The notes under the pieces: model-generated
Databases searched by the model: none
The model's input: the letters and a program-made list of their open reading frames with translations, nothing else
Told to the model about the DNA's origin: nothing
Part shown: positions 2,869 through 38,285 of the stretch, piece by piece
Layout: each line of letters begins with the position of its first letter
How positions within the stretch are numbered: the first letter of the stretch is position 1
Assembly (NCBI GenBank): GCA_026707145.1
Contig: JAPOXK010000021.1
Coordinates: forward strand, 169,588 to 233,587
Direction: 5' to 3'
From: Chloroflexota bacterium
Lineage (GTDB): Bacteria > Chloroflexota > Dehalococcoidia > Bin125
DNA length: 64,000 bases
Made by a program: the position numbers and the translations under genes

Positions 2869-2907
2869 ATTTTCACGAGCCTGGGCCGGTTCGATGGGGG
2901 AGCCGTT

Positions 2908-3834: not shown

Positions 3835-4745
3835 TCGCCGCTGCGCTTCGTACCGTTGCGCCGGCCAAGCTTAATCTCACCCTTGAGGTCCTCGGCCGCC
3901 GTGACGACGGTTTTCACGACCTCATCTCCGTCGTGCAGACGATCGATCTGTGCGATACGGTCACGATCGCGCCTGCCCCTCAACGCAGCCTGCGGTTCGA
4001 GATATCTGCCGCTCTGCAGCGTTCCCTGCCGCTGCCCGTCGAGGGCGAGCTTATTACCCGTACCTGGGACCTGTTGATCGAGCACTACGGCCCCGCCGCG
4101 ATCGATGACCGTGCTGCCGTGCACGTCGTCAAACGCATTCCGATTGCTGCCGGGCTTGGTGGAGGTTCCTCCGATGCCGCCGCCTTCCTGCGACTCGCCC
4201 GTGCCTTTTGGAAGCTACCCTTGAGCGACGCCGCCGCGATCGATCTGCTTGCCCAGGTCGGCTCCGATGCACCGCTTTTCCACGCGGCCGGCACCGTGCT
4301 GATGGAAGGGCGCGGTGAACGCCTCACTCCACTCCCCGATCAACCGACCGCTGCCTGGCGTGGCGTCCTCTGGACCCCCGAGTTGCCCTCCCCCGAGAGT
4401 AAGACCGCGACCATGTTCCGCGCGCTGCGGCCGTCGCATTTCGGCGGCGGCGATCGATCGTGCGCACTAGCCGCCCGCCTTCAGCAAGGCCTTCCGCCGC
4501 GCTCTGAGGACCTCGTCAACACCTTTGAACGGGTAGCCGATGAGGTTTTCATCGGTCTACGCGCCGCGCGCCGCCGCTTCGCTGCCGAGACTCGGTCACT
4601 GCCCCACCTAGCTGGTGCCGGACCATCGCTCTTCCTGCTCAACCCTCCCGATCACGGAGACGTTTCCTTCACGACCGTCGTGCGGCCGCTGCCGCGCGCG
4701 GCCTGTGCTGTCGAACCCGTGAGGCTGGTGTCCACCAATGCTTAA
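3831..4745 (+). CDS. ispE: 4-diphosphocytidyl-2-C-methyl-D-erythritol kinase (MEP pathway)
   Basis: N-terminus APAKLNLTLEVLGRRDDGFHDL and GHMP-kinase motif AAGLGGGSSDAAA. The GTG start overlaps the rsmA stop (GTGA), which suggests translational coupling. Confidence 0.85.
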   Translation: MIAAALRTVAPAKLNLTLEVLGRRDDGFHDLISVVQTIDLCDTVTIAPAPQRSLRFEISAALQRSLPLPVEGELITRTWDLLIEHYGPAAIDDRAAVHVVKRIPIAAGLGGGSSDAAAFLRLARAFWKLPLSDAAAIDLLAQVGSDAPLFHAAGTVLMEGRGERLTPLPDQPTAAWRGVLWTPELPSPESKTATMFRALRPSHFGGGDRSCALAARLQQGLPPRSEDLVNTFERVADEVFIGLRAARRRFAAETRSLPHLAGAGPSLFLLNPPDHGDVSFTTVVRPLPRAACAVEPVRLVSTNA

Positions 4746-4772
4746 GCGCCAGCTGACGTTGCGGGCTATCTA

Positions 4773-5183
4773 ATGGAGTCGTTGTTAGCTGGCTTCGTGG
4801 CGGGCTACGCGCTCGGTTTGCTGGCGCTCGTTCTCCTTGCCACAAGCCCGCGGACGCTCATCGACTGGAGCCGACGGTTGCAGGCCCAATTCCCGGATAA
4901 CGCCGCACTGCCCGCCGCCTTTGCCGGCGTTGCGCTCGTCGCGCAGACGGGCTGGGGGGTCCTCGGTCTGGTCTTCGGCGCCGTCTATTGGGCGCTGCGC
5001 GATACTGGCGGCGGCCTCGGCAGCCCCAGTCTCGCTTTCACGATCGCCGTTCTCGTGCTCGCGGCGGGTGGCGCCGTCGCGGCCTGGGTTGTGCAGCCTG
5101 CTTGGACGCGCCGCGCCCTCGTCTCCGCGATCTCCTTCGCCGCGATCATCGGCTGGTTTCTGCCCCATCTCGCAGAGGCGTGA
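4773..5183 (+). CDS. Hypothetical integral membrane protein (about 4 predicted TM helices)
   Basis: 136-aa ORF with hydrophobic stretches (GYALGLLALVLLA, AAFAGVALVAQTGWGVLGLVFGAVYWAL, AFTIAVLVLAAGGAVAAWVV). I recognised no family match. Confidence 0.5.
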   Translation: MESLLAGFVAGYALGLLALVLLATSPRTLIDWSRRLQAQFPDNAALPAAFAGVALVAQTGWGVLGLVFGAVYWALRDTGGGLGSPSLAFTIAVLVLAAGGAVAAWVVQPAWTRRALVSAISFAAIIGWFLPHLAEA

Positions 5184-5248
5184 CTGTGTGCCCGCGCGCG
5201 CTACGCTGATCGCGCGCGCCATTCGTTCGCGTCTAGGCAGGGGAAAGT

Positions 5249-9416: not shown

Positions 9417-10706
9417 CTATCCGACCTGTTGCGCTGCTTTTTGGCGCACCCACCTTCGTGCTGCTTGCTTCTTGCTCCGCCCATCGGCGCTCTCTGAAAG
9501 CTCTCCGTCGAGCACGGCGTCACGGAGCGCGGCGCGCCAGGTACCGAGCGCGGCATCGCACAGACCCAGCGCCGCGAGCTCCGCGGCGCTCAGCGGCGAT
9601 TCGGCATCGCGCCAGGCGGATAGATACAGCCGCGCCCGCTCCCCCGCGCGCCCCGTCCATAGGGCCGCAGCAGCCTCGATCACCGACACCGGCTCCCCCC
9701 GGAAAGATGTCGCCGCTGCGCTGGGAGCGAGCGCGCGCGCCGCGATCCGTGAACGATGCTGTTGCAAGGACAGACCGCGTTCCAGCGCTCGCCCCTCCTT
9801 GCGCCGCAGTGCACAGTGTGTGGCGACGCGCTGTGCCAGGGCTGGCTCCTCCACTAGGCCATGCAGGGCCCAGAAGTGCTCGCCCTGGCGTCTTCCTCTC
9901 CCGCCCAGTCGCGCCCAGGCATGCCGCAGGCGCGGTGCCGGCCGCCAGCCCCGCACCGCTGCCTCCGTTAACCCCCACTCCACCGCCCGTCGCAGCGCAC
10001 CGTCTGCGGCCTTGTCCTCTAAGAGTCGGCGCCACTCTGCTCCAAAGCGCTCCTGGCTCAGTTCCTGCAATCCGCTGGCGTCGCGCCGCAGCAGCCGCAT
10101 CGTCTTGCGAGAGAGACGTCCTTCCAAGCGGGCGGCGTAACGGCAGGCTCTCAAGAGGCGTGCGGGATCATGGATGAACGAGCGCGTGTGCAGCACACGG
10201 ATCCGCCTCGCGCGTAAGTCGCGCAGCCCGCTGCAGGGGTCCACCAGTTCGCCCCGGCGTGCGTTGGTTAGCGCCAGCGCCACGGCGTTGATACTGAAGT
10301 CCCGTCGCGGCAGGTCGGCCTCGATCGCTGCGGGCCACACCACGGGTGGAGCTGTCGGTTCGGGGTAGCGCTCGCGTCGGGCGCTGGCAAGATCGACGGT
10401 CGCGCTGCCGAGCCGCAGACGTGCGGTCAGGAAGCGGGGAAAGAGCGTGAGATCCGCTTTGCTTGCTTGCGCGGCGGCGCGAGCGATGGCCTCAACCTCG
10501 CCTTCCACGACCAGATCGATCTCGCGCATCGGGCCTGGCTGGGCGCGCAGCAGATCGCGCAGCGCTCCCCCCACGAGATAGAGCGCCGCCCCGTGGCGCT
10601 GCGACTGGCCGACGCAGGCGCAGGTGAGCGTCGCTGCCTCGTGCGCGAATGTGCGTTCGATCTGCTCGATCAGATCCGATCGCAAGGCATGATCCATGCT
10701 CGTCAT
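9417..10706 (-). CDS. cca: tRNA nucleotidyltransferase (CCA-adding enzyme) / poly(A) polymerase family
   Basis: Polymerase-beta-like head LYLVGGALRDLLR…DLVV and the RRDFSINAVA motif. 429 aa. Confidence 0.85.
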   Translation of the reverse strand: MTSMDHALRSDLIEQIERTFAHEAATLTCACVGQSQRHGAALYLVGGALRDLLRAQPGPMREIDLVVEGEVEAIARAAAQASKADLTLFPRFLTARLRLGSATVDLASARRERYPEPTAPPVVWPAAIEADLPRRDFSINAVALALTNARRGELVDPCSGLRDLRARRIRVLHTRSFIHDPARLLRACRYAARLEGRLSRKTMRLLRRDASGLQELSQERFGAEWRRLLEDKAADGALRRAVEWGLTEAAVRGWRPAPRLRHAWARLGGRGRRQGEHFWALHGLVEEPALAQRVATHCALRRKEGRALERGLSLQQHRSRIAARALAPSAAATSFRGEPVSVIEAAAALWTGRAGERARLYLSAWRDAESPLSAAELAALGLCDAALGTWRAALRDAVLDGELSESADGRSKKQAARRWVRQKAAQQVG

Positions 10707-10801
10707 AATATGGACTCACGATGACGGGCTATCGAGTGCCACGATACGGGAAGATAAACTGCACATGTGTCTGAGCGGCTGATGGTTAACCTTTCGGAGT
10801 C

Positions 10802-11572
10802 TTGGCCGTGACCGCAGGGGTGGTTCTCGACCCTGCAGCCCTCTCGCGTGCCCATGGTGGACGGCGACTCGATGTGCTCACCCGCCGCCTTGGTTACCGC
10901 TTCGAAAACGCTGCCTTGCTGCGTCAAGCGCTCCTCCACCGTTCCTATCTCAACGAGAACCCCCACGAATTGCTCGAATCGAATGAGCGCTTGGAGTTCC
11001 TCGGCGACGCCGTTCTCGATCAGATCATCTCCCGCCGCCTCTATGATGATTATCCTGCGGCGGGCGAAGGTTGGCTGACCGAAGTGCGATCGCTTCTCGT
11101 GCGGAACGAAACCCTCGCCTTTCTCGCCGAACAATATGGCCTTGGTTCCTACATCGTGCTCGGCAAGGGCATCGACGCGCAGAACGGGCGTGAGCAACCG
11201 GCCATCTTGGGCCGGACCTTCGAGGCGCTGATCGGCGCCATCTACATCGACGGAGGGATCGGGTCCGCACGGCGTTTCGTTCTCCGCGCGCTCGCCGCCG
11301 AGCTTGATGCCATCGCTATCGCTGGTTTTGAGCGTGATCCGAAGACGCTTCTCCAAGAGGCTTGCCAGAGCCGCTGGCACGCGACCCCCACGTATCACAC
11401 GATCGACGAGCGCGGCCCCGCCCACGCGCGCGAGTTCACCGTCCTGGTTCGTTTGCAGGACCGCGATCTCGCCACCGGCGAGGGCAAGAGCAAGCAGGCC
11501 GCCGAGAAATTGGCCGCGGAAGCGGCGCTGCGCTCGCTGCCGACGGCCGCACCGGCTGGCGCGCAAGGGTGA
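10802..11572 (+). CDS. rnc: Ribonuclease III
   Basis: RNase III signature ERLEFLGDAVLDQIIS, N-terminal LGYRFENAALLRQALLHRSY and a C-terminal dsRBD. The start is TTG/GTG and its exact position is uncertain. Confidence 0.9.
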   Translation: MAVTAGVVLDPAALSRAHGGRRLDVLTRRLGYRFENAALLRQALLHRSYLNENPHELLESNERLEFLGDAVLDQIISRRLYDDYPAAGEGWLTEVRSLLVRNETLAFLAEQYGLGSYIVLGKGIDAQNGREQPAILGRTFEALIGAIYIDGGIGSARRFVLRALAAELDAIAIAGFERDPKTLLQEACQSRWHATPTYHTIDERGPAHAREFTVLVRLQDRDLATGEGKSKQAAEKLAAEAALRSLPTAAPAGAQG

Positions 11573-11579
11573 TGCGATC

Positions 11580-14500
11580 GTGCACCTGAAGCAGATCGAG
11601 ATCCAGGGGTATAAGTCGTTCGCCAGCAAGACGGTGGTGGAGATCGATCCTGGGATCACCGCCGTCGTTGGCCCCAACGGCTCCGGCAAGTCCAATATCA
11701 CGGACGGCATGCGCTGGGTGCTCGGTGAGCACAGTGGCAAGGCGATGCGCACACGCCGTCTGGAGGAAGTGATCTTCGCCGGCTCTGATCAACGGCCGCC
11801 TGCCGGCATGGCAGAGGTCCGGATTACCCTCAACAACGAGGACAGCTGGCTGCCGCTCGACTTTACCGAGGTCAACGTCGCCCGCCGTGTGCACCGTAAC
11901 GGCGACTCCGAATTCTTCATCAACAACAACCGGGTGCGCCTGCGCGACATCCAGGAGCTCTTCCTGCGCGGAGGCCTCGGTCCGAGCTCTTACGCGATCC
12001 TGGGCCAAGGTCTGGTCGAAGAGGTGCTCCGCCTCCGTCCTGAGGAGCGCCGTGCCTTGATCGAAGAGGTCGCCGACGTGCGCCGCCATCGCGCCCGGAT
12101 TGAAGAGGCGCAGCGTAAGCGGGGCGCGGCGCAGGAGAATCTTGGCAAGGTGCGCCTCTTGCTTGATGAGATCGAGCCGCGCATGCGCACGCTTGAGCGC
12201 CAAGCCAAGCGCGCGCTCAAGCATGCCGAGATCCAACGCGCCCTCCGGCGCGCCCTTGCGGATTGGTATGGCCGCGAGTGGCGGCATGCGGACAGTAAAT
12301 GCGCCCGTGATCGCGAAACCTTCGAACTCCGCGAGCGTCAACAGAGCGACGCCGCACAAGTCGTGCGCGATGCCGAAGAGGCGGCGACGGAAGCCGAGAG
12401 CCAGCAGCGCGCCGCGCGCCTTGAGACCGAGCGCGCTGCTGCTGAGCAGCGCCGCCGCGCCGATCACGTCCGTCGTCTCGAACAGGAGCAGGCGCTGGCT
12501 GCAGAGCGCCAGCGCTTGCTCACTGATCGCGCCGCCGAACTGCGGCGGGACCTGAGCGCGCTCGATCGCGACGGCGCGGCAGCGTCGCGTGATGTCCCCA
12601 TCGAGCTGGACCCCAGCTTGGAACGCTCCCTCAGGGAAGCCGAAGAGGCGCTCACCGCCGCCCGCGACCGCCTCGCTCAGGTCGATGCGGAGCAGGAAGT
12701 GGTCCGCGGTCGGCTGATCGAGATCGACGAAGATCTCGCTCGCCTCCGCGGTGCCCAAGCTGAGGACGGCGCGCGCTTGACTCATATCGCCGCCGAGCGT
12801 GAGCGCCTCCGCGCCGATACGGGAGAGGCGCGCCGATCACCCCTGCTAGCCGCGCTGGAGGAGGCTGAGGCCGTCGCCAGGGGCGCCGAAGAGGCCAGTA
12901 GCGCCGCCGCCGCTGCCGCCAAGCAAGCGCGTGAGAGTCGCGAGGGCTTGGCCCAGCGCTACTACGCCGTTTCCGCCTACATTCGCAATTTGGAGAGCGC
13001 ACGTGCCGCCCGTGAACGGCGCTTGCAGGCGGCGCGTGACCGACTCGAGATCCTGCGCGCGATGCAAGCGGAAAGCGAGGGCATGCGCCAAGGACTGCGC
13101 GCCCTCTTCGGCGGTCGCGGCGTGCCTCGCGGCGATGAGCCCACCGGTATTCCCGGCGTGCTGGGCGTGCTCCGTCATTTGATGCGCGTTCCCCGTGGCC
13201 TCGAGCGCGCGATCGAGGCTGCCCTTGAGGACTACGTGGACGCGGTCGTCTTCGATGACGCCGAGCAAGCGCTCCAAGTCATTGATGCGCTCTCGCGTGA
13301 GCACGCCGGACGGATCGTCACGCTCCCGCTCGATACGCTGCGGCACCGAAGCCCGCTCGCGCTCCAGCGCGAGCCCGGCGTGATCGGCACGGCATCCGCT
13401 CTCGTTCAGTGCGACGACCGCTTTCGTCCCCTCATCGACAGCGTGCTCGGTCGCACCATCGTTGTGGAGGACATTTCCGCCGCTCGTCAGATCCTTGGGC
13501 GGGGGCTGAGCAGCGTGGTGACTCGCGAAGGCCACCTGTTGCGTCCGCTCGGCGCCATCGTCGGCGGTGAGGTGGCCAGGAGCAGCTCGTTCGGCCGCGA
13601 GAGCGAGTTGCAGTCGTTGCCCGGGGAGATCGCCGATCTTGAACGATCTTTGCAGCAATCTGCCGAGTATGAAGAGCGGAAAGGGGAGTTGGCCGATGTC
13701 GAGCGCCAGCTCAGCGCTGCCGAGGCAGAAACCGAGCGCATCGCAGAGCAGCGCGCGGCCGCTATCGAGGATGCCGCTGCCCGCCGCACTGAAGCGCTTC
13801 GCTTGCGCGGCGAGTTCGAGAATATGGAGGCGGAGGGCGCGCGCGCCCGCGCGCGCCTCGCCACTCTCGAGGAGGAAGATGCCCGCCTCCGTCAGGAGGT
13901 CGCCGCCCGGGACGCCGAGATCGATGCGATCGAAGGCCGACGGCCGTCCCTTGCCGCGATCGAAGAGCTCGCCAGCCGCCGTCGTGAGTGTGCGCAGATC
14001 GCTGGAGAGGCGGAGGCTCGTCAGAGCGCGCTTGCGGGCCGCCACGAGACGATCGAAGCGGCCTTGCGCGCACGCGCAGCCGCCCAAGTCCGTATGCGTG
14101 AGCAGCGCCAAGCGCGCAACGCGCGGCTGCAAGAGGTTGATCATGAGCTCGCCGAGATCGCGGAGGAAGCCGTCCGGCGCGAGCGCGATCTCGTCCACCT
14201 GCGCGAGGAGCACGCTGCCGCTCTCGCCGCCAGCCCGGACCACGATGCCGTTTCCCGTCTCGCCGACATTGAGAGTGCCCGCCGCGAGACCGTGCAAGCC
14301 GCTCAGAGAGGGTTGCTCGCTGCGGATCGCGCCCTGCTGAACGCCAAGGCTGCGCTTGGGGAGAGCCACGCTGCTCGCGAGCGCTTGCGTGAGGCGATAC
14401 GTACCGACGGGTTCGACGCCGATGGCCGCGGCCGCATAGTCATGCTGGACGCGCTTCCCGAGGAGTCCCTCGGCCGGGGAGACGTGGGAATGGGGGAGAG

Positions 14501-24164: not shown

Positions 24165-24353
24165 GGCAGCTGCGCCCGGCTTTGCCTGCGCCCGGTCGCC
24201 GCTGCGGCCGCTGGGAGAGACGCTGCACTGGGGATTACCCACCACTTGTAGCTGCTTGTATAGACCGCGACCGCTGCATTGCTAGGCTTTCTGCGTTGCC
24301 CCGCATTGCCAAGACAGCCCGAGCAAAGCCCTGAACGTGAATCGAGTTCCATC

Positions 24354-25988
24354 GTGATTGATTCGCCCAGCCCGAGCGCCGCGCCGCAGCCGATTCCGAC
24401 GAACGTTGCGGGAGTCAGCCTGCTGGCAGCGCCTCCGTCCGAGGCCGCTCACGTCCTCAGCGACGAGGCACTCGCCTTCGTGGCCGGTCTGCAGCGCCGC
24501 TTCGATGCCACCCGTCAGATGCTTCTGGAGCGCCGCCGCGATCGCCAGGCCCGCCTCGACGCCGGCCAGCGCCCCGACTTCCTCCCCGAAACCGCCGCGA
24601 TCCGCGAGGAACTCGGCTGGCGGGTTGCGCAGACGCCGCCCGACTTGCAGAGGCGCTGGGTGGAGATCACCGGTCCGGTTGAGCGCAAGATGATGATCAA
24701 CGCACTCAACTCCGGCGCCGACGTCTTCATGGCCGACTTCGAGGACGCGCTCTCGCCCAGCTGGGACAACGTCGTTCAGGGCCAGGCGAACCTGATCGAG
24801 GCCGTGCGTTGCGCGCTGGCGCTCGATATCCCCGGCGGGAAGTCTTACCGTCTGAATCCGCAGATCGCCACCCTGATGGTGCGGCCGCGCGGCTGGCAGC
24901 TCGACGAGCGTCACCTGCTCGTCGACGGCGCTCCCATCTCCGCCAGCCTCTTCGACTTCGGCCTCTACTTCTTTCACAACGCCCGTGAGGCGCTCCAGCG
25001 CGGCACGGGCCCCTACGTCTACCTGCCCAAGCTGGAGAGCCACTTGGAGGCACGGCTCTGGAACGACGTCTTTGTTCACGCGCAAGAGACGCTGGGTATC
25101 CCCCAGGGCAGCGTGCGCGCCACGGTTCTGATCGAGACGATCCTGGCCGCTTTCGAGATGGAGGAGATCCTCTACGAGCTGCGCGACCACGCCGCCGGTC
25201 TCAACGCGGGCCGTTGGGACTACATCTTCAGCCTGATCAAGAAGTTCCGGACCGACGACGCCGGCATCCTTCCCGACCGCGCCCAGATCACCATGACCGT
25301 TCCCTTCATGCGCGCCTATACCGAGCTGCTTGTCAAGACGTGTCATAAACGGGGCGCGCACGCGATCGGCGGGATGGCCGCCTTTATTCCTAGCCGCCGG
25401 GACGCCGCCGTGAACGAGGTGGCGCTGGCGAAGGTGCGTGAAGACAAGCAGCGCGAGTCCGGCGACGGCTTCGACGGCACCTGGGTTGCTCACCCGGATC
25501 TGGTGCCCGTGGCCGGCGAGATCTTCGCTGCCGCCCTGCGCGAGAACGACCACCAGAAGCAACGGCTGCGGGCCGACGTCGCCGCGGACGCGGATGCGCT
25601 TCTCGCCCTCCGCGTCCCCGACGGCGCCGTCACGCTCGGCGGCCTGCGCAGCAACATCAGCGTCGCCCTGCAGTACCTCGACGCCTGGCTGCGAGGCAAC
25701 GGCGCCGTCGCGATCTTCAACCTCATGGAGGACACGGCGACCGCCGAGATCAGCCGCGCCCAACTCTGGCAGTGGGTGCGGCATCGCGTCGCCCTGGCGG
25801 ATGGCGAGGGCGCTGAGGCGAAGGTCACGGCCGAACTCTACGCCCGCGTTCGCGACGAGGAGATCGAGAAGCTGGGCGGGCGCGAGAGCGGTGAGTTGGG
25901 CCAAGCCGCCGACCTGCTCGACAGCCTCGTCATGGGCGATGACTTCGCGGATTTTCTTACGCTCGGTGCGTACGAGAGGCTGCAATGA
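24354..25988 (+). CDS. aceB: Malate synthase A (glyoxylate shunt)
   Basis: Strong match to the AceB family ([36 protein letters not shown]; [11 protein letters not shown]; CGRWDYIFS; [18 protein letters not shown]; DGTWVAHP). The ORF is open from 24279; the start is chosen at GTG 24354 and is uncertain. Confidence 0.88.
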
Positions 25989-27343
25989 CCTCCATCACCC
26001 CAATCGACACTGATCGGACAGCCGCTATCGCCGCGCTCGAACGCCGCTGGATGGAGGAAGCGCAGGATCTCGCGGTGCGGCGTGACTACACGACCGCCGA
26101 TGTGCTGCGCCTGCGCTCCTCTCTCCCTATTGAGCACTCCCTCGCGCGCCACGGCGCCCAGCGCCTGCGCAGACTCTTCCAAGAGCGATCCTATGTGCAC
26201 ACCTTCGGCGCGCTCAGCGGCGCCCAGGCAGTGCAGATGGCGCGCGCAGGCCTCGACGCCATCTACCTCAGTGGGTGGCAGGTCGCCGCCGACGCCAACC
26301 TGGCTGGCCAGACCTACCCCGATCAGAGCCTTTACCCCGTCAACAGCGCGCCCGCCTTGGTGCGGCGTATTAACAATGCCCTGCAGCGCGCCGATCAGGT
26401 CGAGCGGGCGGAGGGACATCACTCGCGTGATTGGTTCGTTCCGATCGTCGCCGACGCGGAGGCCGGCTTCGGCGGCCCTCTCCATGCCTTCGAACTTACG
26501 AAGGCGATGATTGAGGCGGGCGCTGCCGCCGTGCATTTCGAGGATCAACTCGCCGCCGAGAAGAAATGTGGCCATCTCGGCGGCAAAGTGCTCGTGCCCA
26601 CCGCCCAGCACATCCGCACGCTCACCGCCGCCCGCCTCGCCGCCGACGTGCTTGACGTTCCCACGGTGGTCGTGGCGCGTACCGACGCCGTTAGCGCCAC
26701 GCTCCTCACCTCCGACATCGATCCCTGCGACCATCCGTTCATCAGCGGCAGCCGTACCCCCGAGGGCTACTTCGTGGTCGCCGGGGGCATCGAGTCCGCG
26801 ATCGTCCGCTCGCTGGCCTACGCTCCCTACGCGGATCTCCTTTGGTTCGAATCCTCTACACCCGACCTCGATCAGGCCCGGCACTTCGCCAGCGTGATCC
26901 ACGAACACTATCCGGGTAAGTGGCTCGCCTATAACTGCTCGCCCTCCTTCAATTGGAGCGCCCACCTCGATAGCGATGCCATCAACGCTTTCCAGCACGA
27001 GCTTGGGGCTCTGGGGTACAAGTTCCAGTTCATCACGCTGGCCGGCTGGCACGTTCTCAATCTCAACAGCTTCGAACTCGCCAATGACTACGCCGCTCGC
27101 GGTATGAGTGCCTATGTCGATCTGCAGCAGCGGGAGTTCACGGCGGAGCCCGCCGGCTACAGCGCCACCCGCCATCAGCGTGAGGTCGGCACCGGCTACT
27201 TCGACCGGATCCTTGAGGCGGTGGCCAACGGCCAGAGTTCTACCACAGCGCTTGCCGGCTCCACGGAGCAGCAGCAGTTCGCCGCGAAGGGCGATCCGAA
27301 CGACCAGAGCGCGGCCCTACCGAAGGCGGCGAAAACGTCTTAG
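25985..27343 (+). CDS. aceA: Isocitrate lyase (glyoxylate shunt)
   Basis: ICL signature [31 protein letters not shown] and SGWQVAAD. The ATG overlaps the aceB stop (ATGA). Confidence 0.9.
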
Positions 27344-28030: not shown

Positions 28031-30343
28031 CTAGCCGGGGTCCAGCGGCCGGTCGAAGTTCGCCCGCAGGAAGTTTACCAGGTCCCAGCGCTCCTGCTCG
28101 CTCAACTCGTCGCTCCAGGCCGGCATCCCCGTGCCGCGGATCCCGTCGCTGATCCAGGCGAACAGCACGCCGTCGGGATGGAAGGGCACGTGCACGCGGA
28201 AGTTGGCTGGCGGCGCGGGCAACGTCCTTGCCAGCGGCCCGTCCCCCAACCCGTCTTCGCCGTGGCACTGCGCGCAGTTCGTCGCGAACAGCGCGGCGCC
28301 GTTGGCGATCGATTCCGCGGTCCGCTCCACTGGGTTCTCCTGCGTCCGCCCCGGCTCCACTTCCAAGCCCCAGAGCAGGACCACCGCCGTCGCCATGCAC
28401 AGGGCTCCCGCCGCCAGCGACAGATCGCCCGCGCGCGACGATACGCGCTTGCGCAGCGGCGCCCGGTAGGCAATCAAGAGACCGGCTCCCACCGCCGCCC
28501 ATAGGGCCCCGATCCCGTTCCAGTCGAACTGTGTGATCGGCAGGCTCAGCGCGCCCGGCTGCGCCTGCCCGAAGGGCAGCACTTCGATGAATCCTTGCTC
28601 GACGCTGGTCGTGATCCCGCCGATCACGTCGTCTGAGCGCTCGCGCCGGACCTCAATGTCGACATCCCAGGAGCCGGCCAACCCGAAGAACGCACCCTCG
28701 ATCACGTAGCGGCCGTCCTCCGGCTCCGCGGGTATGATCACGGGGCCCACGCTCGGATCTTCGTAGCGGAAGTGGAGCCGGACTTCCGTGACTCGATCGG
28801 CCGTGTCGCCGCTTTCCCGTTCGAGATCTATCGCGTAGCGGTTTATCCCCACAAGATTCGGCTCGATCGTCAACCGCGCCGTCAGATCGCTGAGCGCGAT
28901 CGTCTCGCTGATCGCGCGTTCCTTCTGGACCGCAGCGACCGCCGGCAGCTCGCTCCGAGCCGACGGTAGCTGCGTCAAGGCGGCGCTTGCTGCGAGCACG
29001 GCCAGCGCCAGCCCCAGCTCTATCCGCATCAGCGTGCGGAAGCGGCGCTCCAGCCGCGAATTCTCGAGCCCCGCGGTCCCCGCCCGCTGGGATCGCGGGC
29101 GCAGCGCCAGCCCGTTCGTCGCCGCCACCAAGAACAAGAGAGCCAGCAGCCCCAGCTTTGCCAGCATCGCCACGCCCCAGGATGTGTCGATGAAACCGCG
29201 CAGGATCGGTACTTCGGCCAGCAGGCTGAGGAGACCCGCCGTGATCAAGATCGGGACACAGCCCGCCGCTGCCCAGGAGAAGCGGCGCACGGCTTCGATC
29301 TGGAACGTGCGCCGCTGCTGTGGCTCCGCGGCTCGGCGTGTGGACCACAGCGTCCACACCAGCGCCGCGAGCATTCCGATCCACACGGCCGCCGCTGCCA
29401 GGTGCAGCGCGTCGAACAATGTGGCCCAGATCCAACCTTGGTCCAGCGCCGCGCCGTGGCTCACGCTCGCAAAGCTTCCGATCAGTCCTGCGCCCAAGAA
29501 CAAGAGCGTGAGCAGCGCCTCCCGTGATGTCCGTAGCCATGGTCGCCATTGCGTCGCCAGTAGCAGCGCCGCCGCCATGATGAGGAACAGCCAGCGGATC
29601 AGCAGCCACAGCCCGTTGCGTGTGTCGAACAGCGCTTCGTCCAGGAATGCCAAGCCACCCAGCCGCAGCGCAGCGGAGGCCGCGTCGTAGCCCGTCGTGC
29701 AGATCAGCAGCACGACCGCGAGGGTCGCTCCCTCCCAGGCGTAGGTCAGCGCCGCCCCCGCGAAGCGTGGCCCGGCTCCTCCGACCAGGCGCGCGGCCGG
29801 GCGCGCGGCCCACAACGCGAACAGCGCGCCGCCCACCAACCCGATGAGTGCTGTGAAGCTGAACCACTTCACCGCCGCGTCGGCACCGGCTGGCGGTCCG
29901 GGCCGGGAGAGATCCGGCGCGAAGACCGTCCCGGCCGGTGTGTTCCCGTCCGGATGCAGCACCGTGAACGAGAACGAGCCCGTCCAGGTGTGCCCGTCTA
30001 CCTCGGACAGCGTTCGCCAAGCGACGGTGTAGATCCCCGGATCGAGCGGCTCGACCCGGGTGCTCATCTGCGTGGCATCCTCGGGGTTGAACAGCACGCT
30101 GCCCCGATCCACGCGCCGCCCCAGGCTGTCGAGCACCTCGATCCCCGAGAAGTCTTGCTGGAGGGGCTCCGTCATGATCAGGTTCACGAGCCGTGGGGAT
30201 TCCCGCAACGTAGCGTTGATCGGTGGATCCGAGCGCTCTAGCAGCGCGTGGCTGGCGGCCGGCTCGGCGGAGAGCCAGAGCCAAGCGACGAGGCCGCCGA
30301 GCGCCACTAGCGCGAAGAGCGCGCGGGCCGCGCGAGTGGTCAC
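28031..30343 (-). CDS. Copper resistance/transport fusion protein: CopC - CopD (multi-TM) - YtkA/FixH-like domain - class I cytochrome c
   Basis: N-terminal signal + CopC motif AASHALLERSDPP…, a CopD-like polytopic membrane region, a soluble beta-rich domain (RLTIEPNLVGINRYAIDLERESG…), and a C-terminal CAQCHGEDG…GTGMPAW (CxxCH haem site plus Met ligand). 770 aa. Confidence 0.8.
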   Translation of the reverse strand: MTTRAARALFALVALGGLVAWLWLSAEPAASHALLERSDPPINATLRESPRLVNLIMTEPLQQDFSGIEVLDSLGRRVDRGSVLFNPEDATQMSTRVEPLDPGIYTVAWRTLSEVDGHTWTGSFSFTVLHPDGNTPAGTVFAPDLSRPGPPAGADAAVKWFSFTALIGLVGGALFALWAARPAARLVGGAGPRFAGAALTYAWEGATLAVVLLICTTGYDAASAALRLGGLAFLDEALFDTRNGLWLLIRWLFLIMAAALLLATQWRPWLRTSREALLTLLFLGAGLIGSFASVSHGAALDQGWIWATLFDALHLAAAAVWIGMLAALVWTLWSTRRAAEPQQRRTFQIEAVRRFSWAAAGCVPILITAGLLSLLAEVPILRGFIDTSWGVAMLAKLGLLALLFLVAATNGLALRPRSQRAGTAGLENSRLERRFRTLMRIELGLALAVLAASAALTQLPSARSELPAVAAVQKERAISETIALSDLTARLTIEPNLVGINRYAIDLERESGDTADRVTEVRLHFRYEDPSVGPVIIPAEPEDGRYVIEGAFFGLAGSWDVDIEVRRERSDDVIGGITTSVEQGFIEVLPFGQAQPGALSLPITQFDWNGIGALWAAVGAGLLIAYRAPLRKRVSSRAGDLSLAAGALCMATAVVLLWGLEVEPGRTQENPVERTAESIANGAALFATNCAQCHGEDGLGDGPLARTLPAPPANFRVHVPFHPDGVLFAWISDGIRGTGMPAWSDELSEQERWDLVNFLRANFDRPLDPG

Positions 30344-31389
30344 GGCGCCTCAGCCGGATCTGCCGGAAGCGATCCGCGCCAGTCGTGCGTCCCGTGAAGT
30401 TCACCCGGAACGAGAATCGTCTGTGTTCTGCGCGTGCTCACTTCGGCGAGGTAGCTTCCGAATGTTCCGCGCAGGAGGATGTGCCGCCCGTCTTGGGACC
30501 AAGCGAAGTCGGGCTGATCCTCCTGCACGCCCGTGAGCCGGTGCAGTCCACTGCCGTCCGGGCGGATCAGCCAGACGTCCTGGACGCCGTTGCTGCGGCT
30601 GTGCACGGCGGACTTCGGCTGGCTGGACACCACCCGCCCCTCTCCCGAAGCCGCTACCGCGATCCATGCGCCATCGGGCGAGAACTGGGGCAGGCGGAAG
30701 ACGGCCAGACCGTCGCTGAGTGTGAGGAGCGGCGTCCGCTCGCCCGTCTCCAGGTTCAGCACCGAGAGCTTGTGTGCAAGCGCGGGGTCGTCGACGAACA
30801 CCAGCAGCCGTCCGTCGGGCGAGAGCGCCGGATCTCGCGCGTTCGTCACCAAGATCTCGCTCTCACCCGTTGTCAGGTTGACCCGCTCGGCGTTGACCTG
30901 GAAGGCGCGGCCTGCGTCGTCCGGTTGATTCAGTTGGTGTGCGTAAACGAGCGATTCCTGATCGGGTGACCACTGCGGCGTCCACACGAACGATCCCTCG
31001 CCTCTCGGTGTGACGACGACGCGCCCTCCGTCATCAAGGCCGGCTACCCGAATGTCGCTGAGTACCGTGACCCCTTCGCTTCCACTGAAAATCGCCAAGC
31101 GCACATAGGCCACCGCTTGGCCGTCGGGCGAGATCCGCGGCGATAGGTACGAGACGTTCAAGCTGGGCGCGACCACCAGTTTCCGCAGGTCGCCGTTCCG
31201 TTCCAGCTGGAGGTCCCCTCCGACCGAGTAGATGCTGAGCCCGGGTACGCCGAACGCCTTGCCCTCATCGACGGTCAGCGTCTGCGGGGGCGAGGGAGCG
31301 CTCTGCTCGGTTGGAGGCGCATCGCTTCCGCAAGCGGCGGTTGTCGATCCCGCTACGAGCAGCGCCGCCGCTGCGAGGAGAGCCCTCAC
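30340..31389 (-). CDS. PD40/TolB-like beta-propeller lipoprotein
   Basis: Lipobox LLVAGSTTAAC. Repeated SPDG/PD40 motifs (RISPDGQAVAY, WSPDQESLVY, LSPDGRLLVF, FSPDGAWIAV, SQDGRHILL). 4-nt overlaps with both neighbours. Confidence 0.7.
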   Translation of the reverse strand: MRALLAAAALLVAGSTTAACGSDAPPTEQSAPSPPQTLTVDEGKAFGVPGLSIYSVGGDLQLERNGDLRKLVVAPSLNVSYLSPRISPDGQAVAYVRLAIFSGSEGVTVLSDIRVAGLDDGGRVVVTPRGEGSFVWTPQWSPDQESLVYAHQLNQPDDAGRAFQVNAERVNLTTGESEILVTNARDPALSPDGRLLVFVDDPALAHKLSVLNLETGERTPLLTLSDGLAVFRLPQFSPDGAWIAVAASGEGRVVSSQPKSAVHSRSNGVQDVWLIRPDGSGLHRLTGVQEDQPDFAWSQDGRHILLRGTFGSYLAEVSTRRTQTILVPGELHGTHDWRGSLPADPAEAP

Positions 31390-32114
31390 GATCTCCGATC
31401 CTTCCTGGCCTTGATCAAGCGACCCCCGGCTAGCCCTGCTACCGTCACTGCACTCACGATCGCCAGCGCGATCGGTCCCGCGCTGATCCCGCCCTCGTCC
31501 GGCTCCACGGCCGGCGGCAGGGTGACCGGATCGAGGGCATCCACTGTCCTCTCCTCAGTCGCTTCGGTTTGCCCTTGCCCGGGTCCGTCACCGGGGTATG
31601 GAATCAAGAGCTCTTCGGCGAGAGCACGGTCGCTCGCCCTGTCGGCAGCTGTGGGAGGATATAGGACATAAAAAGAATAACGACCAGAATCGGCGTCGCC
31701 ATCCTCAGCGGAGAGGTTGGTCCACTCGACGATGTAGCGGCCCGGCGGGAGCGGCTCCGCGACGCTGGAGAAGAGGTGCTGGCGGTCGGCGCTATCGATC
31801 AGCGCTTCACTCACAAGCCTTGCGGTCCCGCTGGAGTCCAGCAGGCGGATCGTGTTCGCGCCCTGGCGGCGGAACAGCTGCTGGCTGAACCAGAGATCGA
31901 TCCGATCCGGCGCTGTCGCCAGCTCAGCGGCGAACGCGGGCTCGGAGCGGACGTAGCTGGCGTGCGCCTCGACATGGCTGGGCCAGAGAAGGCCGCCGAT
32001 CACGACCGCGATGGCGGCGATGCTGAAGAGGAGGCGCGCCAACGTCCGATCTGAGCCACCAATGGCCCTGACCTGGGGTGAGTGTCTATTCGTGTCGGTT
32101 CTCCTCGTGCTCAC
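31386..32114 (-). CDS. CopC-domain copper-binding protein with C-terminal membrane anchor
   Basis: Signal/TM followed by HASYVRSEPAFAAELATAPDRIDLWFSQ (CopC-like His-x-x-Leu-x-x-S-x-P start), a beta-rich domain, and a C-terminal TM (GPIALAIVSAVTVAGLAGG). Confidence 0.65.
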   Translation of the reverse strand: MSTRRTDTNRHSPQVRAIGGSDRTLARLLFSIAAIAVVIGGLLWPSHVEAHASYVRSEPAFAAELATAPDRIDLWFSQQLFRRQGANTIRLLDSSGTARLVSEALIDSADRQHLFSSVAEPLPPGRYIVEWTNLSAEDGDADSGRYSFYVLYPPTAADRASDRALAEELLIPYPGDGPGQGQTEATEERTVDALDPVTLPPAVEPDEGGISAGPIALAIVSAVTVAGLAGGRLIKARKDRRS

Positions 32115-32793
32115 TGTTCTGGTCGCTCTCCTCGCCGTCCCCGTCTGTCATGCCGTCAGCCTCCATGTCATGCTCCTCGGCGGACTGCTCGTGACTCGGT
32201 ACGGCTTGGTGATCGTGTGTGGGCGGCTCTGTGGAATCGCTGATCGCGGGCGGGGGCGGCACTGCTTCTCCCGCCAGAAAGGCGTTCACTGATTCCTCGA
32301 AGGCGTGGGCATGGGCGTGCACGACCCGCGCGGGGCGTCCGGCCGCTTGCGCGTCGTCGTCCAAGATCGGCCCCTCCAGGGTTTGCAGCGCGGCGAGGAA
32401 TCCCGCTACGTGCGCATCCAGATCGGTCGGCCAGATCGGCGCCTGCAGGGTGTTGATAGCGCGGATCACGATCCCGGGATGGGTGGCGTGGATCGTGCGC
32501 TCGTTGTTGATCACTTCGTCCATCGAGTGAAACTGCGCCACTTGGAGCGCCGGCAACGACGACACCAGCAGCGCACGGTCCGCCGTCTCGCCGGCGCGCT
32601 CCAGCAGGCCGCGCAGCTCCGCCACCTCTTGCTGAAGCGCCTCGAACTCCGATCTATTCACCTCGCCGCCGCCGCAGGCTGCAGCCAATACAGCCGCCGC
32701 GGCCAGCATTCCGCAAGCCGGCAGCATCAGCCGCTTCCGCAGCTTCGATCCAAACAGAAACGGTTCCATGAGTGAACAACTCTTTCGTCGCAA
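32086..32793 (-). CDS. His-rich acidic lipoprotein, probable metal-binding protein
   Basis: Lipobox LAAACGG after the internal Met (MEPFLFGSKLRKRLMLPACGMLAAAAV). C-terminal VVHAHAHAFEE…HDHQAVPSHEQSAEEHDMEADGMTDGDGEESD is rich in His, Asp and Glu. Lies in an operon with CopC/CopD genes. Confidence 0.55.
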   Translation of the reverse strand: MRRKSCSLMEPFLFGSKLRKRLMLPACGMLAAAAVLAAACGGGEVNRSEFEALQQEVAELRGLLERAGETADRALLVSSLPALQVAQFHSMDEVINNERTIHATHPGIVIRAINTLQAPIWPTDLDAHVAGFLAALQTLEGPILDDDAQAAGRPARVVHAHAHAFEESVNAFLAGEAVPPPPAISDSTEPPTHDHQAVPSHEQSAEEHDMEADGMTDGDGEESDQNSEHEENRHE

Positions 32794-32866
32794 AGGTAGA
32801 GCCCCTTGCCGGTGCGCAGGGTTGAGGTGCAGCTGGGACGGCTGCTCCGCGAAGCGGGTGGGGGAG

Positions 32867-33274
32867 CTATCGCGGCGGGGGCGTCGGAGGCCGGACTGCT
32901 GGCAGCCCAGCCCAGTGCTTGGCTGTGGTGATCGCTGCCAGCACCGGCACCGGCAGCTCGGGAGCCGGCGTGGCCGCGGCGATCATCAGAGGCACTGCAC
33001 TGGATCCCAACCCGCCGCTGTCACCGTGGCCGTGCGCGTGGTGACTGGCCGTCGTTGGACCGTGTGTGGCAGTTGGTTCGCTGGCGTTGGGACCGTGGTG
33101 GCCTTGGAGAATGGCGGTCGGCCCCAAATCGAAGACGGCGGGGGCCGGCAGGTGGTCTAGATAGGACAGTGCCGGTAGCCAGGCCAAGAGCAAGATCGTC
33201 GCGATCCAGGCAGGTCGCCTCAGCAAGGGAGATTGCGCGCGAGGGAAGGCCCGGATCGCGAGCGTGGCTGCCAT
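32867..33274 (-). CDS. Hypothetical His-rich membrane protein
   Basis: Two hydrophobic helices and a His-rich loop QGHHGPNASEPTATHGPTTASHHAHGHGD. First gene of the apparent copper cluster. The start is chosen at the internal Met; it could be shorter or longer. Confidence 0.4.
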   Translation of the reverse strand: MAATLAIRAFPRAQSPLLRRPAWIATILLLAWLPALSYLDHLPAPAVFDLGPTAILQGHHGPNASEPTATHGPTTASHHAHGHGDSGGLGSSAVPLMIAAATPAPELPVPVLAAITTAKHWAGLPAVRPPTPPPR

Positions 33275-33514
33275 GCTTTGCAGCGTACACTCCCGCGATT
33301 CAGGCGCGCCAGACGATGGCTGGAGAGCAGGACGTTCGTCATCTCGCCATCCGGTGCGTGCGCCGTCTCCGTCGTTGGTCAATGATTCCGAGAGCCGCGA
33401 TGCCGCTAGGTTCGCCCATTAACGACTGGAATGCCGCCGCCCCGGCGCCTTGGAGCGGGATGCCCCCCCGGGGGGGGCTGGGAGCGTGTCCCGACCGGGC
33501 AAGCGGCGGCTTGT

Positions 33515-35741: not shown

Positions 35742-36812
35742 ATGGCCATGGGCGCGATCGTCATGCTCCTCGATGCCTGCTCTTGGGCGGTCGCGGGCAC
35801 GATCATCACCGCCAAGCTGGCGCGGGTCGACTTCCTCTCCATCGCCACCTCCCGCAGCGTGTTCGGCTTCCTCTTCGTCTTTCCCGCCATGTTCGTCTTA
35901 GGGGCGCAGGCCGACCTCTGGGGGATGAGTTTCCACACGATGTGGCAGCTCGTCGTTGGCGGTCTGGTCGCCTACGTGCTGGCGGAGCCGGGCTACGTGC
36001 TCAGCCTGGGGCTGCTTGGCCTCACGCGCGGCTACACCGTGGTCATCGGTCTCTTCAGTCTGTTCTCCTACGTCTTCCCCGCCGTCTTCCTCGGTGAGCC
36101 GATCGGCCTGCAGGAGGCCCTGGGCGGGGTGGTGATCATCGTGGGCGTCTACATCGTCGCCCTCTACGGCCGCCGCAGACCCCTGCGCGTGGGTGAGGAA
36201 CGGGGGGAGCCGCTGGCGAGCTCTGGAGATCATGGACCCCGCTGCCGGCGCTGGCTCTCGCGTTCCCGGCGGCGATCGGGCGGCGGTCTCCGTCCCATCA
36301 GCGGCGGCAGCGGCCTCACCGAAGCGGTTGCCCCCGGTCCCTCCTCATCCGTCCGCATCCCGGGCACGCCGATCCGCCTGTCGCGCATTCTCCTCGGATC
36401 GCTCGTGGCCCTGCTCACCGCCATCGCCTGGGCGGGAGACACGACCTTGCTGCGCGCCATCGCCGATCCCTTCGACGCCTCCGCGGTAGCCGTGATCCAG
36501 ATCGCTCCGGGCGCCTTGGTGATCGCACTGGTGCTCCTCGTGATCCGCCGCGGACGCGTCTTCCAAGGCGCTTTCACGCCGCGGGCGGGTCTCGTGCTCG
36601 GTCTCACCGGGGCGGCCACGACGGGCCTCGGTACTATCCTGCTGGTATTCGCGATCGGCGAGATCGGCCCCGGCCCGGTCGCCGTGCTCTTCGCCATGTC
36701 GACGATCTTCGCCATGCCGCTGAGCGCGATCGTCCTCAAGGAGCGCGTCACGATCTGGGGCGTGCTCGGCGCCGCCGTCGCGGTTGGCGGCGTCGCCCTG
36801 CTGGCCCTCTAG
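35742..36812 (+). CDS. DMT-superfamily (EamA-like) transporter, paralog 1
   Basis: 10-TM EamA-like architecture (two 5-TM halves) with a ~70-aa Arg/Gly/Ser-rich cytoplasmic linker. Confidence 0.75.
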   Translation: MAMGAIVMLLDACSWAVAGTIITAKLARVDFLSIATSRSVFGFLFVFPAMFVLGAQADLWGMSFHTMWQLVVGGLVAYVLAEPGYVLSLGLLGLTRGYTVVIGLFSLFSYVFPAVFLGEPIGLQEALGGVVIIVGVYIVALYGRRRPLRVGEERGEPLASSGDHGPRCRRWLSRSRRRSGGGLRPISGGSGLTEAVAPGPSSSVRIPGTPIRLSRILLGSLVALLTAIAWAGDTTLLRAIADPFDASAVAVIQIAPGALVIALVLLVIRRGRVFQGAFTPRAGLVLGLTGAATTGLGTILLVFAIGEIGPGPVAVLFAMSTIFAMPLSAIVLKERVTIWGVLGAAVAVGGVALLAL

Positions 36813-36848: not shown

Positions 36849-38285
36849 GTGGGCGTCGTCGCCATCCTCTCCGATGCCGTCATCTGGGCCGCGACCGGCA
36901 CCTTCCTCACGGCCAAGCTGGCCAAGATCGACTTTCTCACGATCGTTACCTTCCGCTCGATCTTCGCCGTCACTTTCATCGTCGCCGCCACGTTCGCGCT
37001 GGGCGCGCAGGACGACCTTTGGCACATGGACCCGAACATCGTCTGGCAGCTGGCGCTGGCGGGTCTGGCCGCCTACGTGATCGCCGAGCCGGCCTATACG
37101 CTGACGCTCGCCTTCTTGGGGCTGACCCGCGGCTACACCGCCGTGATCGGCCTCAACAGCGTTGCCTCCTTCGTCTTGCCCGCGATCTTCCTCGGCGAGG
37201 CGATCGGCTGGCGCGACGCTGTGGGCGGAGTCGTCATCCTCAGCGGCGTCTATCTCGTTGCCTTTTACGGCCGCGCCGCCGTACAGGCCAGGCCGACTCC
37301 GCCACCGCCACGACGTTTGCCTTGGCTCCGCCCCGCTACGGCCCAGTCCCTCGCCGTGCTCCAGTCCCGTCCTTCGCGTCCTTTAGAACCGCCCGCTGCT
37401 GTGCCTCAGCAGGGTTCACTCCCGATTGTGCGCTCGGCCGTCGCCGCGCGAGCAGGACGCGCAGCGGAGTCCGGGATCCCGATTCCTGGGATTGGGAAGA
37501 CGCTGCCGTGGCGCGCTGTCGGGCTTGCTCTCGCCGCCGTCATCCTCAGCGGCATCTATCACCTTGTTGTTTTTCATGGGCGCCCCGCACGGAATGAGCA
37601 GAGCGGGGCATCCTCGCGACGCGGCGTGCGGTTTGCCTTCGCTCTCCTCATCATCGGTGGTCTCTACCGCTTCGTTTTCCATGGGCGCGCTGGCGCGCGG
37701 AGCGTGCAGGCCGCGTCGCCGCCGCGCCGTCTCCAGTGGCCCAACGCCGCGTCCCGGAAACCAGCGTCCCCGGCTACACGCTCGGCCGACGCCGCGCAAG
37801 CAGGGCGCTCGGTGTCGGGGGGCGTCCGGATCCCCGGCATCGGGATCACGCTGCCGCGCCTCGCAGTCGGGCTCACGATCGCTCTCATCACCGCCCTCGG
37901 TTGGGCGGGAGACGCGACGATCCTGCGGGCCGTCGCCCCCGGCATCCACGTCGCTCCTGTTGCACTGGCGCAGCTCTGGCCAGCGATGATCGTCTTTATC
38001 GTCTGGTTCACGATCGCGCGCCGGGGGAGGCCGCTGGTGGGAATCCCGTCCAAGGGCACGGCGTCGCTGATCGGCGGGACGGGGGCGCTCACCACCGGTC
38101 TCGGCACCATGCTGGTCATCATCGCGGTGAAGGACATCGGCGCCGGCCCTACCGCTGTCCTGTTCGCCATGTCCACCATCTTCGCTTTGCCTCTGGGGGT
38201 GATCTTCCTCAAGGAGCGGGTCACTATTTGGGGCGTGCTGGGCGTCTGCGTCGCGGTGGCGGGAGTCGCCATCCTCGCCATCTGA
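36849..38285 (+). CDS. DMT-superfamily (EamA-like) transporter, paralog 2 with internally duplicated linker/TM6 region
   Basis: ~55-60% identical to paralog 1 over both halves. The ~200-aa middle insertion contains repeated units (PPRRLPWLRPATAQS / PPRRLQWPNAASRKP; IPGIGKTLPWRAVGLALAAVIL / IPGIGITLPRLAVGLTIALITAL; GIYHLVVFHGRPAR / GLYRFVFHGRAGAR). Confidence 0.75.
   Translation: MGVVAILSDAVIWAATGTFLTAKLAKIDFLTIVTFRSIFAVTFIVAATFALGAQDDLWHMDPNIVWQLALAGLAAYVIAEPAYTLTLAFLGLTRGYTAVIGLNSVASFVLPAIFLGEAIGWRDAVGGVVILSGVYLVAFYGRAAVQARPTPPPPRRLPWLRPATAQSLAVLQSRPSRPLEPPAAVPQQGSLPIVRSAVAARAGRAAESGIPIPGIGKTLPWRAVGLALAAVILSGIYHLVVFHGRPARNEQSGASSRRGVRFAFALLIIGGLYRFVFHGRAGARSVQAASPPRRLQWPNAASRKPASPATRSADAAQAGRSVSGGVRIPGIGITLPRLAVGLTIALITALGWAGDATILRAVAPGIHVAPVALAQLWPAMIVFIVWFTIARRGRPLVGIPSKGTASLIGGTGALTTGLGTMLVIIAVKDIGAGPTAVLFAMSTIFALPLGVIFLKERVTIWGVLGVCVAVAGVAILAI

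Follow-up and report, generated by a model that had tools for sequence, protein, structure and literature searches.

What is a c-type cytochrome doing on a copper importer? This question is raised by a minus-strand gene cluster in a Dehalococcoidia genome (Chloroflexota; assembly GCA_026707145.1), which we analysed within a window of 64,000 nucleotides (contig JAPOXK010000021.1, positions 169,588 to 233,587; coordinates below are window positions unless a locus is named). A first-pass annotation had described the cluster as a five-gene copper-handling operon whose last gene encodes an unusual CopC-CopD-YtkA-cytochrome c fusion. All five of the minus-strand open reading frames (ORFs) that it had drawn were present, the first of them placed at 32867-33382, and we refer to the genes as A to E in their 5' to 3' order. 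The cluster is a conserved copper-handling unit of aerobic Dehalococcoidia, and its copper handling is of the CopCD/YcnJ kind, with gene E encoding a cytochrome-bearing variant of a known importer type. As for its function, the odds appear about even that B-C-D-E with a variable gene A form a membrane-tethered cell-surface system for copper acquisition and delivery, in which the tethered cytochrome c interconverts Cu(II) and Cu(I). The redox role of the cytochrome is what we infer here, and the Cu(II)/Cu(I) redox relay of the first-pass annotation was likewise a reasonable inference.

Gene E (28031-30343; the minus strand applies to every feature of the cluster) encodes a 770-residue protein, which its ORF, Pfam matches, homologues and an AlphaFold2 (AF2) model describe as a YcnJ-like CopC-CopD-(YtkA-like)-two-helix-cytochrome c fusion. 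Three regions matched Pfam above the gathering thresholds, namely CopC at residues 32-128 (E 4e-16; 60.2 bits vs a PF04234 cut-off of 23.3), CopD at residues 350-456 (E 9e-18; 65.1 bits vs a PF05425 cut-off of 32.1) and Cytochrome_CBB3/Cytochrom_C at residues 679-760 (E 3e-13; 50.2 and 48.2 bits for PF00034/PF13442 vs cut-offs of 27 and 21.3). Hydropathy, loop charge and the AF2 model concurred on the layout. The model (predicted local distance difference test, pLDDT, 72.8; predicted template modelling score, pTM, 0.51) showed a beta-sandwich at residues 43-128, eight transmembrane helices at 152-456, an eight-strand beta-sandwich at 478-583, a two-helix hairpin at 608-659 and a helical cytochrome c domain at 676-763.

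The signal peptide (residues 1-31; 30251-30343) has a hydrophobic segment at 4-28, and predicted cleavage after AAS would leave His32 at the N-terminus. In an alignment of 46 homologues, on which all invariant-residue calls for E are based, H32 was invariant and directly preceded by A-x-A. The CopC domain (residues 32-130; 29954-30250) carries a histidine brace of H32 and D116-G-H118 and lacks the Met-rich Cu(I) loop, as expected for the Cu(II)-only type of CopC. Foldseek placed it close to the Protein Data Bank (PDB) entries 9c14 (TMt 0.84) and 5icu (TMt 0.78). With phmmer, its whole length aligned to mature CopC of Bacillus subtilis YcnJ (9c14), with H32 equivalent to residue 1 and the invariant D116-x-H118 falling on the D-G-H of 9c14. 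This residue-for-residue match with the YcnJ brace bears out the copper handling proposed in the first-pass annotation. The brace histidines H32 and H118 correspond to H24 and H110 of YcnJ, which are essential in vivo and whose mutation abolishes function (PMC12362106, PMC13344008).

The CopD membrane domain (residues 150-461; 28961-29896) comprises eight transmembrane helices according to Pfam CopD, NCBIfam CopD, hydropathy and the model. Its invariant residues are S295-H296, D311 and H314. H296, in the invariant S-H-G, may be the counterpart of YcnJ H295, which lies in the CopD domain and is essential (PMC13344008). The NCBIfam CopD model aligned over residues 157-458 with 93.7 bits against an equivalog cut-off of 195, and the CopC equivalog scored 58.7 against a cut-off of 95. 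Judged by these scores, E is no equivalog of proteobacterial CopD. The alignments showed that E is built on the scaffold of a YcnJ-type importer whose copper-site residues are intact, with a haem c domain predicted on the same face.

Following the CopD domain is a second beta-sandwich (residues 476-585; 28589-28918), which has eight strands and is predicted to be extracytoplasmic. Its YtkA label in the first-pass annotation was overstated. On whole E, YtkA (PF13115) gave no match at E<=0.1; with the domain excised, it was the only recurrent match, found in six of seven homologues but never reaching threshold (E 1e-4 to 0.26; 12-23 bits vs 25.9). A weak precomputed YtkA match also exists for a 1114-aa relative of E. 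The His and Met residues reported as conserved in the YtkA-type domain of CtaK, where they are putative copper ligands (PMC9145763), are absent. We therefore describe the domain as YtkA-like. A two-helix membrane hairpin with an RKR-rich inner loop comes next (residues 606-660; 28364-28528; AF2 helices 608-633 and 636-659), seen in hydropathy as a segment at 638-663 and a weaker one at 608-628. Alternate membrane loops of E are rich in Arg and Lys, in a positive-inside pattern. Since the CopC domain lies outside and the helix counts are even, the second beta-sandwich and the cytochrome should lie outside too, which gives each of the three soluble domains a predicted outward orientation. Covalent haem attachment needs the outer face.

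The last part of E is a mono-haem cytochrome c domain (residues 668-770; 28034-28342) containing the only CxxCH of the protein. C690, C693 and H694 of this motif, the axial M740, and both H718 and H722 of an H718-x-P-x-H722 segment were invariant in the homologues. By motif spacing, with the distal Met ~45 residues on, and by score, the domain qualifies as a class I c-type cytochrome; its place on the outer face is known by prediction only. The closest solved relative was CytC552 of Thioalkalivibrio paradoxus (42% identity, E 6e-19), which shares the H-x-P-x-H-x-DG segment and whose His83 aligns with H718. CytC552 has a potential of ~+250 mV and takes electrons from a tri-copper thiocyanate dehydrogenase, His83 being the electron-transfer residue (PMC9456337). 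T. paradoxus also has a tcdh-copCD cluster. However, CytC552 is a soluble electron acceptor unfused to CopCD, and a thiocyanate dehydrogenase is lacking here. Further likenesses of the E haem domain are to CcoP and to the mono-haem subunit of alternative complex III.

The fusion proved to be a large Chloroflexota-wide family and not rare, contrary to its earlier description as unusual. An initial homologue search yielded more than 120 clusters with the identical four Pfam domains, the named ones all from Chloroflexota or Dehalococcoidia. An exhaustive search of 1.84 billion cluster representatives (50%-identity clusters) then gave 787 proteins at E<=1e-30. Among the 149 best representatives of the 787 that were checked, 134 shared the E architecture, with a single CxxCH ~79 residues from the C-terminus. 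The source names seen for the family were Dehalococcoidia, SAR202, Chloroflexia and Anaerolineales, every one Chloroflexota. Database annotations were generic ("CopD family protein", "c-type cytochrome", "copper transport protein"), and in a search of the full-text literature we found neither a CopD-cytochrome c fusion nor Dehalococcoidia copper systems described.

Genes E and D share 30340-30343, and genes D and C share 31386-31389. Both 4-nt overlaps, noticed earlier, are real GTGA junctions in which bases are common to the start codon GTG and the stop codon TGA, and they bear out the operon structure. Genes B to E have the codon-position GC content typical of real genes (0.76-0.86 at third positions, GC3; 0.45-0.54 at second positions, GC2; genome 67% GC). 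The order B-C-D-E was kept in 59 of 60 Dehalococcoidia loci with an E identity of 49-92%, the exception being a 2.9-kb contig, so that B, C and D are co-inherited with E. This recurrence is far beyond chance. Two annotated contigs (L061 and L062) also carry the four-gene unit, between unrelated flanks. L061 also encodes a DsbD_TM (CcdA-like) protein, 5.3 kb further downstream than E.

The co-conservation proposed for all five genes therefore holds for B-C-D-E but not for gene A, which was detectable in only four of the 60 related loci (L001, L012, L004 and L005). The conserved core is the four genes B-C-D-E, and gene A is a variable add-on. Gene A (32867-33274) encodes a small protein of ~135 aa with a single transmembrane segment, counted from ATG 33274; the ORF reaches 33382, but the gene probably starts at this ATG, since in L012 the Met is preceded by a stop. 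It is spaced 73 nt from gene B. Its codon-position GC is weaker (0.70/0.62/0.72-0.75). In the comparison with L001, the only one on which the substitution count rests, changes were in excess at the third codon position (25/27/47). The protein has the motifs LLLAWLPxLxxxDHxP and HxHGHG and no Pfam match. Gene A is a real, lineage-specific accessory gene.

Gene B (32086-32793) encodes an orphan four-helix-bundle lipoprotein of 235 aa with its lipobox Cys at C40. Its core was confidently modelled as a bundle of up-down helices (pLDDT 81.6), after which comes a disordered tail whose composition is rich in His, Asp and Glu across orthologues. C40, H89, D92, W121-P122, H159-x3-H163 and F165 are invariant, and E166 is nearly so. 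The ~127 clusters of homologues are all unnamed Chloroflexota proteins without a Pfam domain; B itself had no Pfam match, and PDB sequence and fold searches gave no specific relative. The three invariant His residues together with the tail make up a candidate metal site.

Gene C (31386-32114) encodes a CopC paralogue of 242 aa, assigned from Pfam CopC (E 3e-14; 54.1 bits vs a cut-off of 23.3), the orthologue alignment and an alignment to the CopC of Pseudomonas fluorescens (6nfq). Its start is ambiguous, as GTG 32114 gives a 29-nt overlap with B and TTG 32042 (218 aa) gives a clean signal peptide. The signal peptide ends A|H-A, and predicted cleavage would leave an N-terminal His. In place of D-x-H, the protein has D-G-D, in the window as well as in at least 95% of the aligned orthologues, with the Asp taking the position of His85 in 6nfq. 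By alignment, C is thus a CopC-fold paralogue with an altered site, in which the second brace His is Asp. A conserved DR..A..LL..YPGD extension and a C-terminal transmembrane anchor complete the protein. Two known proteins are comparable. YcnI, encoded with YcnJ in the ycnKJI operon of B. subtilis, is also a second protein of Cu(II)-binding type with an N-terminal His and a C-terminal transmembrane anchor (PMC12362106, PMC13344008), copper binding by C being predicted; however, YcnI is a DUF1775 protein, whereas C is a CopC paralogue with D-x-D. Corynebacterium glutamicum cg1884 is likewise a separate CopC held by a C-terminal transmembrane anchor on the outer face of a Gram-positive-type envelope (PMC9145763).

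Gene D (30340-31389) encodes a 349-aa lipoprotein with a PD40 beta-propeller (E 6e-11; 42.4 bits vs a cut-off of 20.9), so that the CopC, CopD, cytochrome c and PD40 assignments of the first-pass annotation all scored above their gathering thresholds. Across 60 orthologues, the lipobox Cys, SPDG repeats and a C-terminal motif PGEFHGxxDWxG are conserved. The PD40 part of the earlier "TolB/PD40-like" label stands, whereas the TolB part does not: TIGR02800 scored 54.4 bits, far short of its cut-off of 343, with the alignment confined to the repeats at 181-252. A thiocyanate dehydrogenase-like copper enzyme was also considered and was rejected in view of the single conserved His of D, which has no metal-cluster ligand set. 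Each of the three partners B, C and D has a predicted anchor that would hold it at the outer face.

The propeller bears on a reading that does not primarily involve copper, in which the CopC/CopD-like scaffold and the cytochrome c would form an extracytoplasmic electron-transfer module for another substrate or metal, with D and B as substrate-binding or catalytic parts. The copper enzyme that the homologous CytC552 serves is built on a catalytic beta-propeller (PMC9456337), oxidative enzymes such as lytic polysaccharide monooxygenases likewise have a histidine brace as their active site (PMC7529816), and in the searches run no family assigned a function to B or D. However, D has one conserved His and lacks the ligands of a metal cluster, the brace residues of E match, and its CopD-domain His appears to match, those that YcnJ needs for copper uptake (PMC13344008), and every characterised CopC binds copper (PMC12362106). 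We regard this reading as very improbable.

More distant members of the E family provide a further connection between D and E. A hidden Markov model (HMM) of D orthologues matched the C-terminal 300 residues of E-type proteins of 1114-1120 aa (E 4e-31 and 4e-16). These E-D fusions, from other Chloroflexota, are P0297, P0398 and P0399 (1120 aa) and P0391 and P0419-P0429 (1114 aa, one cluster member named Anaerolineales), with a locus at L066 6001-9345. Such a natural fusion, as read from the protein sequences, physically ties the D propeller to the cytochrome end of E.

Other partners vary. A Dehalococcoidia relative with 42% identity (L065 882-6133) has a small His-rich membrane protein and a transmembrane-anchored canonical CopC (D-G-H) before the fusion, and a DsbA/thioredoxin-like gene followed by a Fur-family regulator after it; neither a PD40 gene nor a B homologue was found at this locus. 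The small membrane protein has an A-like layout, but its match to gene A was not significant (E 0.22), and we do not take it as a homologue. In SAR202, Chloroflexia and Anaerolineales loci (L063 6943-7956, L064 6904-7749 and L066 5378-5944), an unannotated partner precedes the distant E members. It is secreted, starts with A-H-[ED]..G.Y...(V/I)G(F/W)..EP after the signal peptide, ends in a transmembrane anchor and has no Pfam match; its sequence suggests that it is possibly another copper binder with an N-terminal His. HMMs of B, C and D gave no match among the neighbours of E in L063 and L064, which indicates that the accessory set is clade-specific. In L063 (SAR202), a 511-aa polytopic membrane protein without a Pfam match (10232-11767) shares a 4-nt overlap with the end of the fusion gene. 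The Chloroflexia member in L064 (1210 aa) lies 2.5-5.5 kb from genes for a multicopper oxidase, a cupredoxin, a ZIP-family transporter (weak match) and a cation diffusion facilitator (CDF) on the opposite strand (2467-5522).

Some of these features would also suit an oxidase-assembly machine, in which the cytochrome c would be no copper reductase but would dock E on a caa3-type oxidase or alternative complex III, or sense redox state, while copper would travel through CopD and the YtkA-like domain to nascent CuA/CuB. In B. subtilis, CuA assembly is aided by CtaK and by the YtkA domain of YcnJ (PMC13344008, PMC9145763), and the resemblance of the haem domain to the alternative complex III subunit and CcoP would fit, as would the DsbA-like gene after E in L065 and the DsbD_TM gene downstream in L061. 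A parallel is CtiP of C. glutamicum, whose CopD module is joined to one with a role in respiration, the assembly factor CtaG (PMC9145763). However, the module in CtiP is Caa3_CtaG and not cytochrome c, and the C. glutamicum system, which also holds the PCuAC protein cg1883, has no PD40 or B-like proteins. The YtkA-like domain of E lacks the His and Met residues reported for CtaK (PMC9145763), and no oxidase, Sco or PCuAC genes were found in L061, L062 or the 29 window ORFs that were scanned outside the operon (eleven further predicted ORFs, from 50784 onward, lay beyond the scan). An assembly role in this form seems unlikely; it is compatible with copper acquisition by the B-C-D-E system and does not exclude it.

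Copper detoxification has a somewhat smaller chance still. Here the cytochrome c would take an electron from surface Cu(I), in the manner of a cuprous oxidase, and pass it to a terminal oxidase, while B and C would bind up the Cu(II) so formed. The earliest descriptions of CopC and CopD came from resistance operons (PMC8689200), the closest solved homologue of the haem domain accepts electrons from a copper centre (PMC9456337), and on thermodynamic grounds a cytochrome at ~+250 mV would oxidise Cu(I) more readily than it would reduce Cu(II). The His/acidic tail of B suits sequestration, and genes for a multicopper oxidase and a CDF transporter lie near the fusion gene in L064. However, CopC and CopD alone cause hypersensitivity rather than resistance (PMC8689200), and the architecture and brace residues of E fit the importer YcnJ. 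CopABCD/PcoABCD of Pseudomonas and Escherichia coli and the E. coli yobA-yebZ-yebY genes share the CopC and CopD family domains with our cluster, but here the proteins are fused and tethered and there is no YebY. Neither a CopA/PcoA multicopper oxidase nor CopB, CopRS, a P-type ATPase or a copper sensor accompanied the operon in the scanned window ORFs, L061 or L062.

CopC binds Cu(II), and the cytoplasmic and assembly pathways use Cu(I). In the acquisition system that we favour, Cu(II) would be captured outside the cell by B, through its His/acidic tail and three-His site, and by the anchored C, through its His1/Asp/Asp site, and would be handed to the histidine brace of the E CopC domain. 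There, one electron from the respiratory chain would be supplied through the tethered cytochrome c, and the resulting Cu(I) would enter CopD or go to cuproenzyme assembly. The D propeller, as a scaffold or partner, would be docked next to the haem domain. The capture step is paralleled by YcnI in Bacillus and cg1884 in Corynebacterium, and Cu(II) exchange between YcnI and YcnJ has been described (PMC12362106). YcnJ is the closest match overall, with the same order of an extracellular CopC, a membrane CopD and an extracellular YtkA-type beta-sandwich, aligned brace His residues and a CopD-domain His (YcnJ H295; E H296 as its putative counterpart). In contrast, E adds the two-helix hairpin and the c-type cytochrome, its YtkA-like domain falls below the Pfam threshold and lacks the conserved His/Met, no YcnK-type regulator is present here, and B and D have no Bacillus counterparts. 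A 2026 study of B. subtilis stated that it is not known whether Cu(II) reduction in YcnJ-type import is enzyme-catalysed (PMC13344008). CcoG of Rhodobacter capsulatus, a membrane-bound protein dedicated to reducing Cu(II) to Cu(I) for copper supply and cbb3 oxidase assembly (PMC13344008), is comparable by proposed function alone, and in our case the electron would come from an outer-face c-type haem. A bolder version, in which the haem domain is an integral cupric reductase at the CopD mouth, D is its obligatory docking partner and B represents a new His-ligated copper-binding four-helix-bundle family, can be advanced only tentatively.

Several points weigh against the acquisition system. The functional reading of the whole E family rests on sequence, models and analogy, and any metal site on B or D is putative. 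Electrons could flow either way, as a high-potential cytochrome could equally oxidise Cu(I), and ~+250 mV, a value taken from the T. paradoxus homologue (PMC9456337), would make a modest reductant for tightly bound Cu(II). Among the relatives P0270, P0282, P0309 and P0389, some are full-length with degenerate haem motifs (CVGGH, CVACN), and others stop after the membrane hairpin, with the cytochrome domain absent. These few proteins imply that the haem is dispensable for the scaffold. Residues 470-600 contain no His, Met or Cys that is invariant among the 46 homologues. The AF2 model of E is of moderate confidence only. In the scanned window ORFs, no cuproenzyme gene was found, nor was a regulator of the CsoR, CopY or CueR type, which the first-pass annotation had advised looking for along with an operator; no conserved operator was found either.

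The promoter scan gave no sigma-70-like sites. A perfect C8G7 palindrome (CCCCCCCCGGGGGGG; 33463-33477) lies in the 132-nt gap between a gene for a phosphate-type binding protein and gene A; it was rejected as a CsoR-type operator, being missing upstream of B in 55 loci. A search for conserved upstream k-mers brought up nothing but the beginning of the coding sequence of a neighbouring, divergently oriented gene. The k-mer reads as a gene start on the reverse strand (MYLAMNRF), is shared by 14-19 loci and was taken to belong to an ABM-domain (antibiotic biosynthesis monooxygenase-like) gene, which in L061 (7178-7537) lies directly upstream of B on the opposite strand, divergent from B-C-D-E.

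The surroundings in the window are those of a housekeeping chromosome, with LepA, KsgA, SMC, FtsY, MutS, MutL, an SDR protein, two EamA transporters and the phosphate-type binding protein. Just downstream of the operon, on the opposite strand, malate synthase and isocitrate lyase genes (KKCGH motif; 24279-27343) overlap each other by 4 nt. The pair, identified from the translations without a Pfam scan, indicates a putative glyoxylate shunt in this high-GC Dehalococcoidia lineage. The two EamA-family genes (35742-36812 and 36849-38285) are tandem paralogues, each with a long Pro/Arg/Ala-rich insert separating its two EamA halves.

A cytochrome welded to an importer on the side of its Cu(II) site is a concrete candidate for the missing reduction step before uptake. 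Should the haem domain indeed reduce Cu(II), E-type proteins would be the first known copper importers equipped with their own electron input, coupling respiratory electrons to the conversion of Cu(II) to Cu(I). The strict linkage to E also makes three functionally unannotated partner families tractable, namely those of B, of the CopC paralogue C with its altered site, and of the D propeller. The system may thereby serve as a pointer to the copper supply of respiratory enzymes in monoderm Chloroflexota, including the abundant marine SAR202 and sponge-associated lineages.

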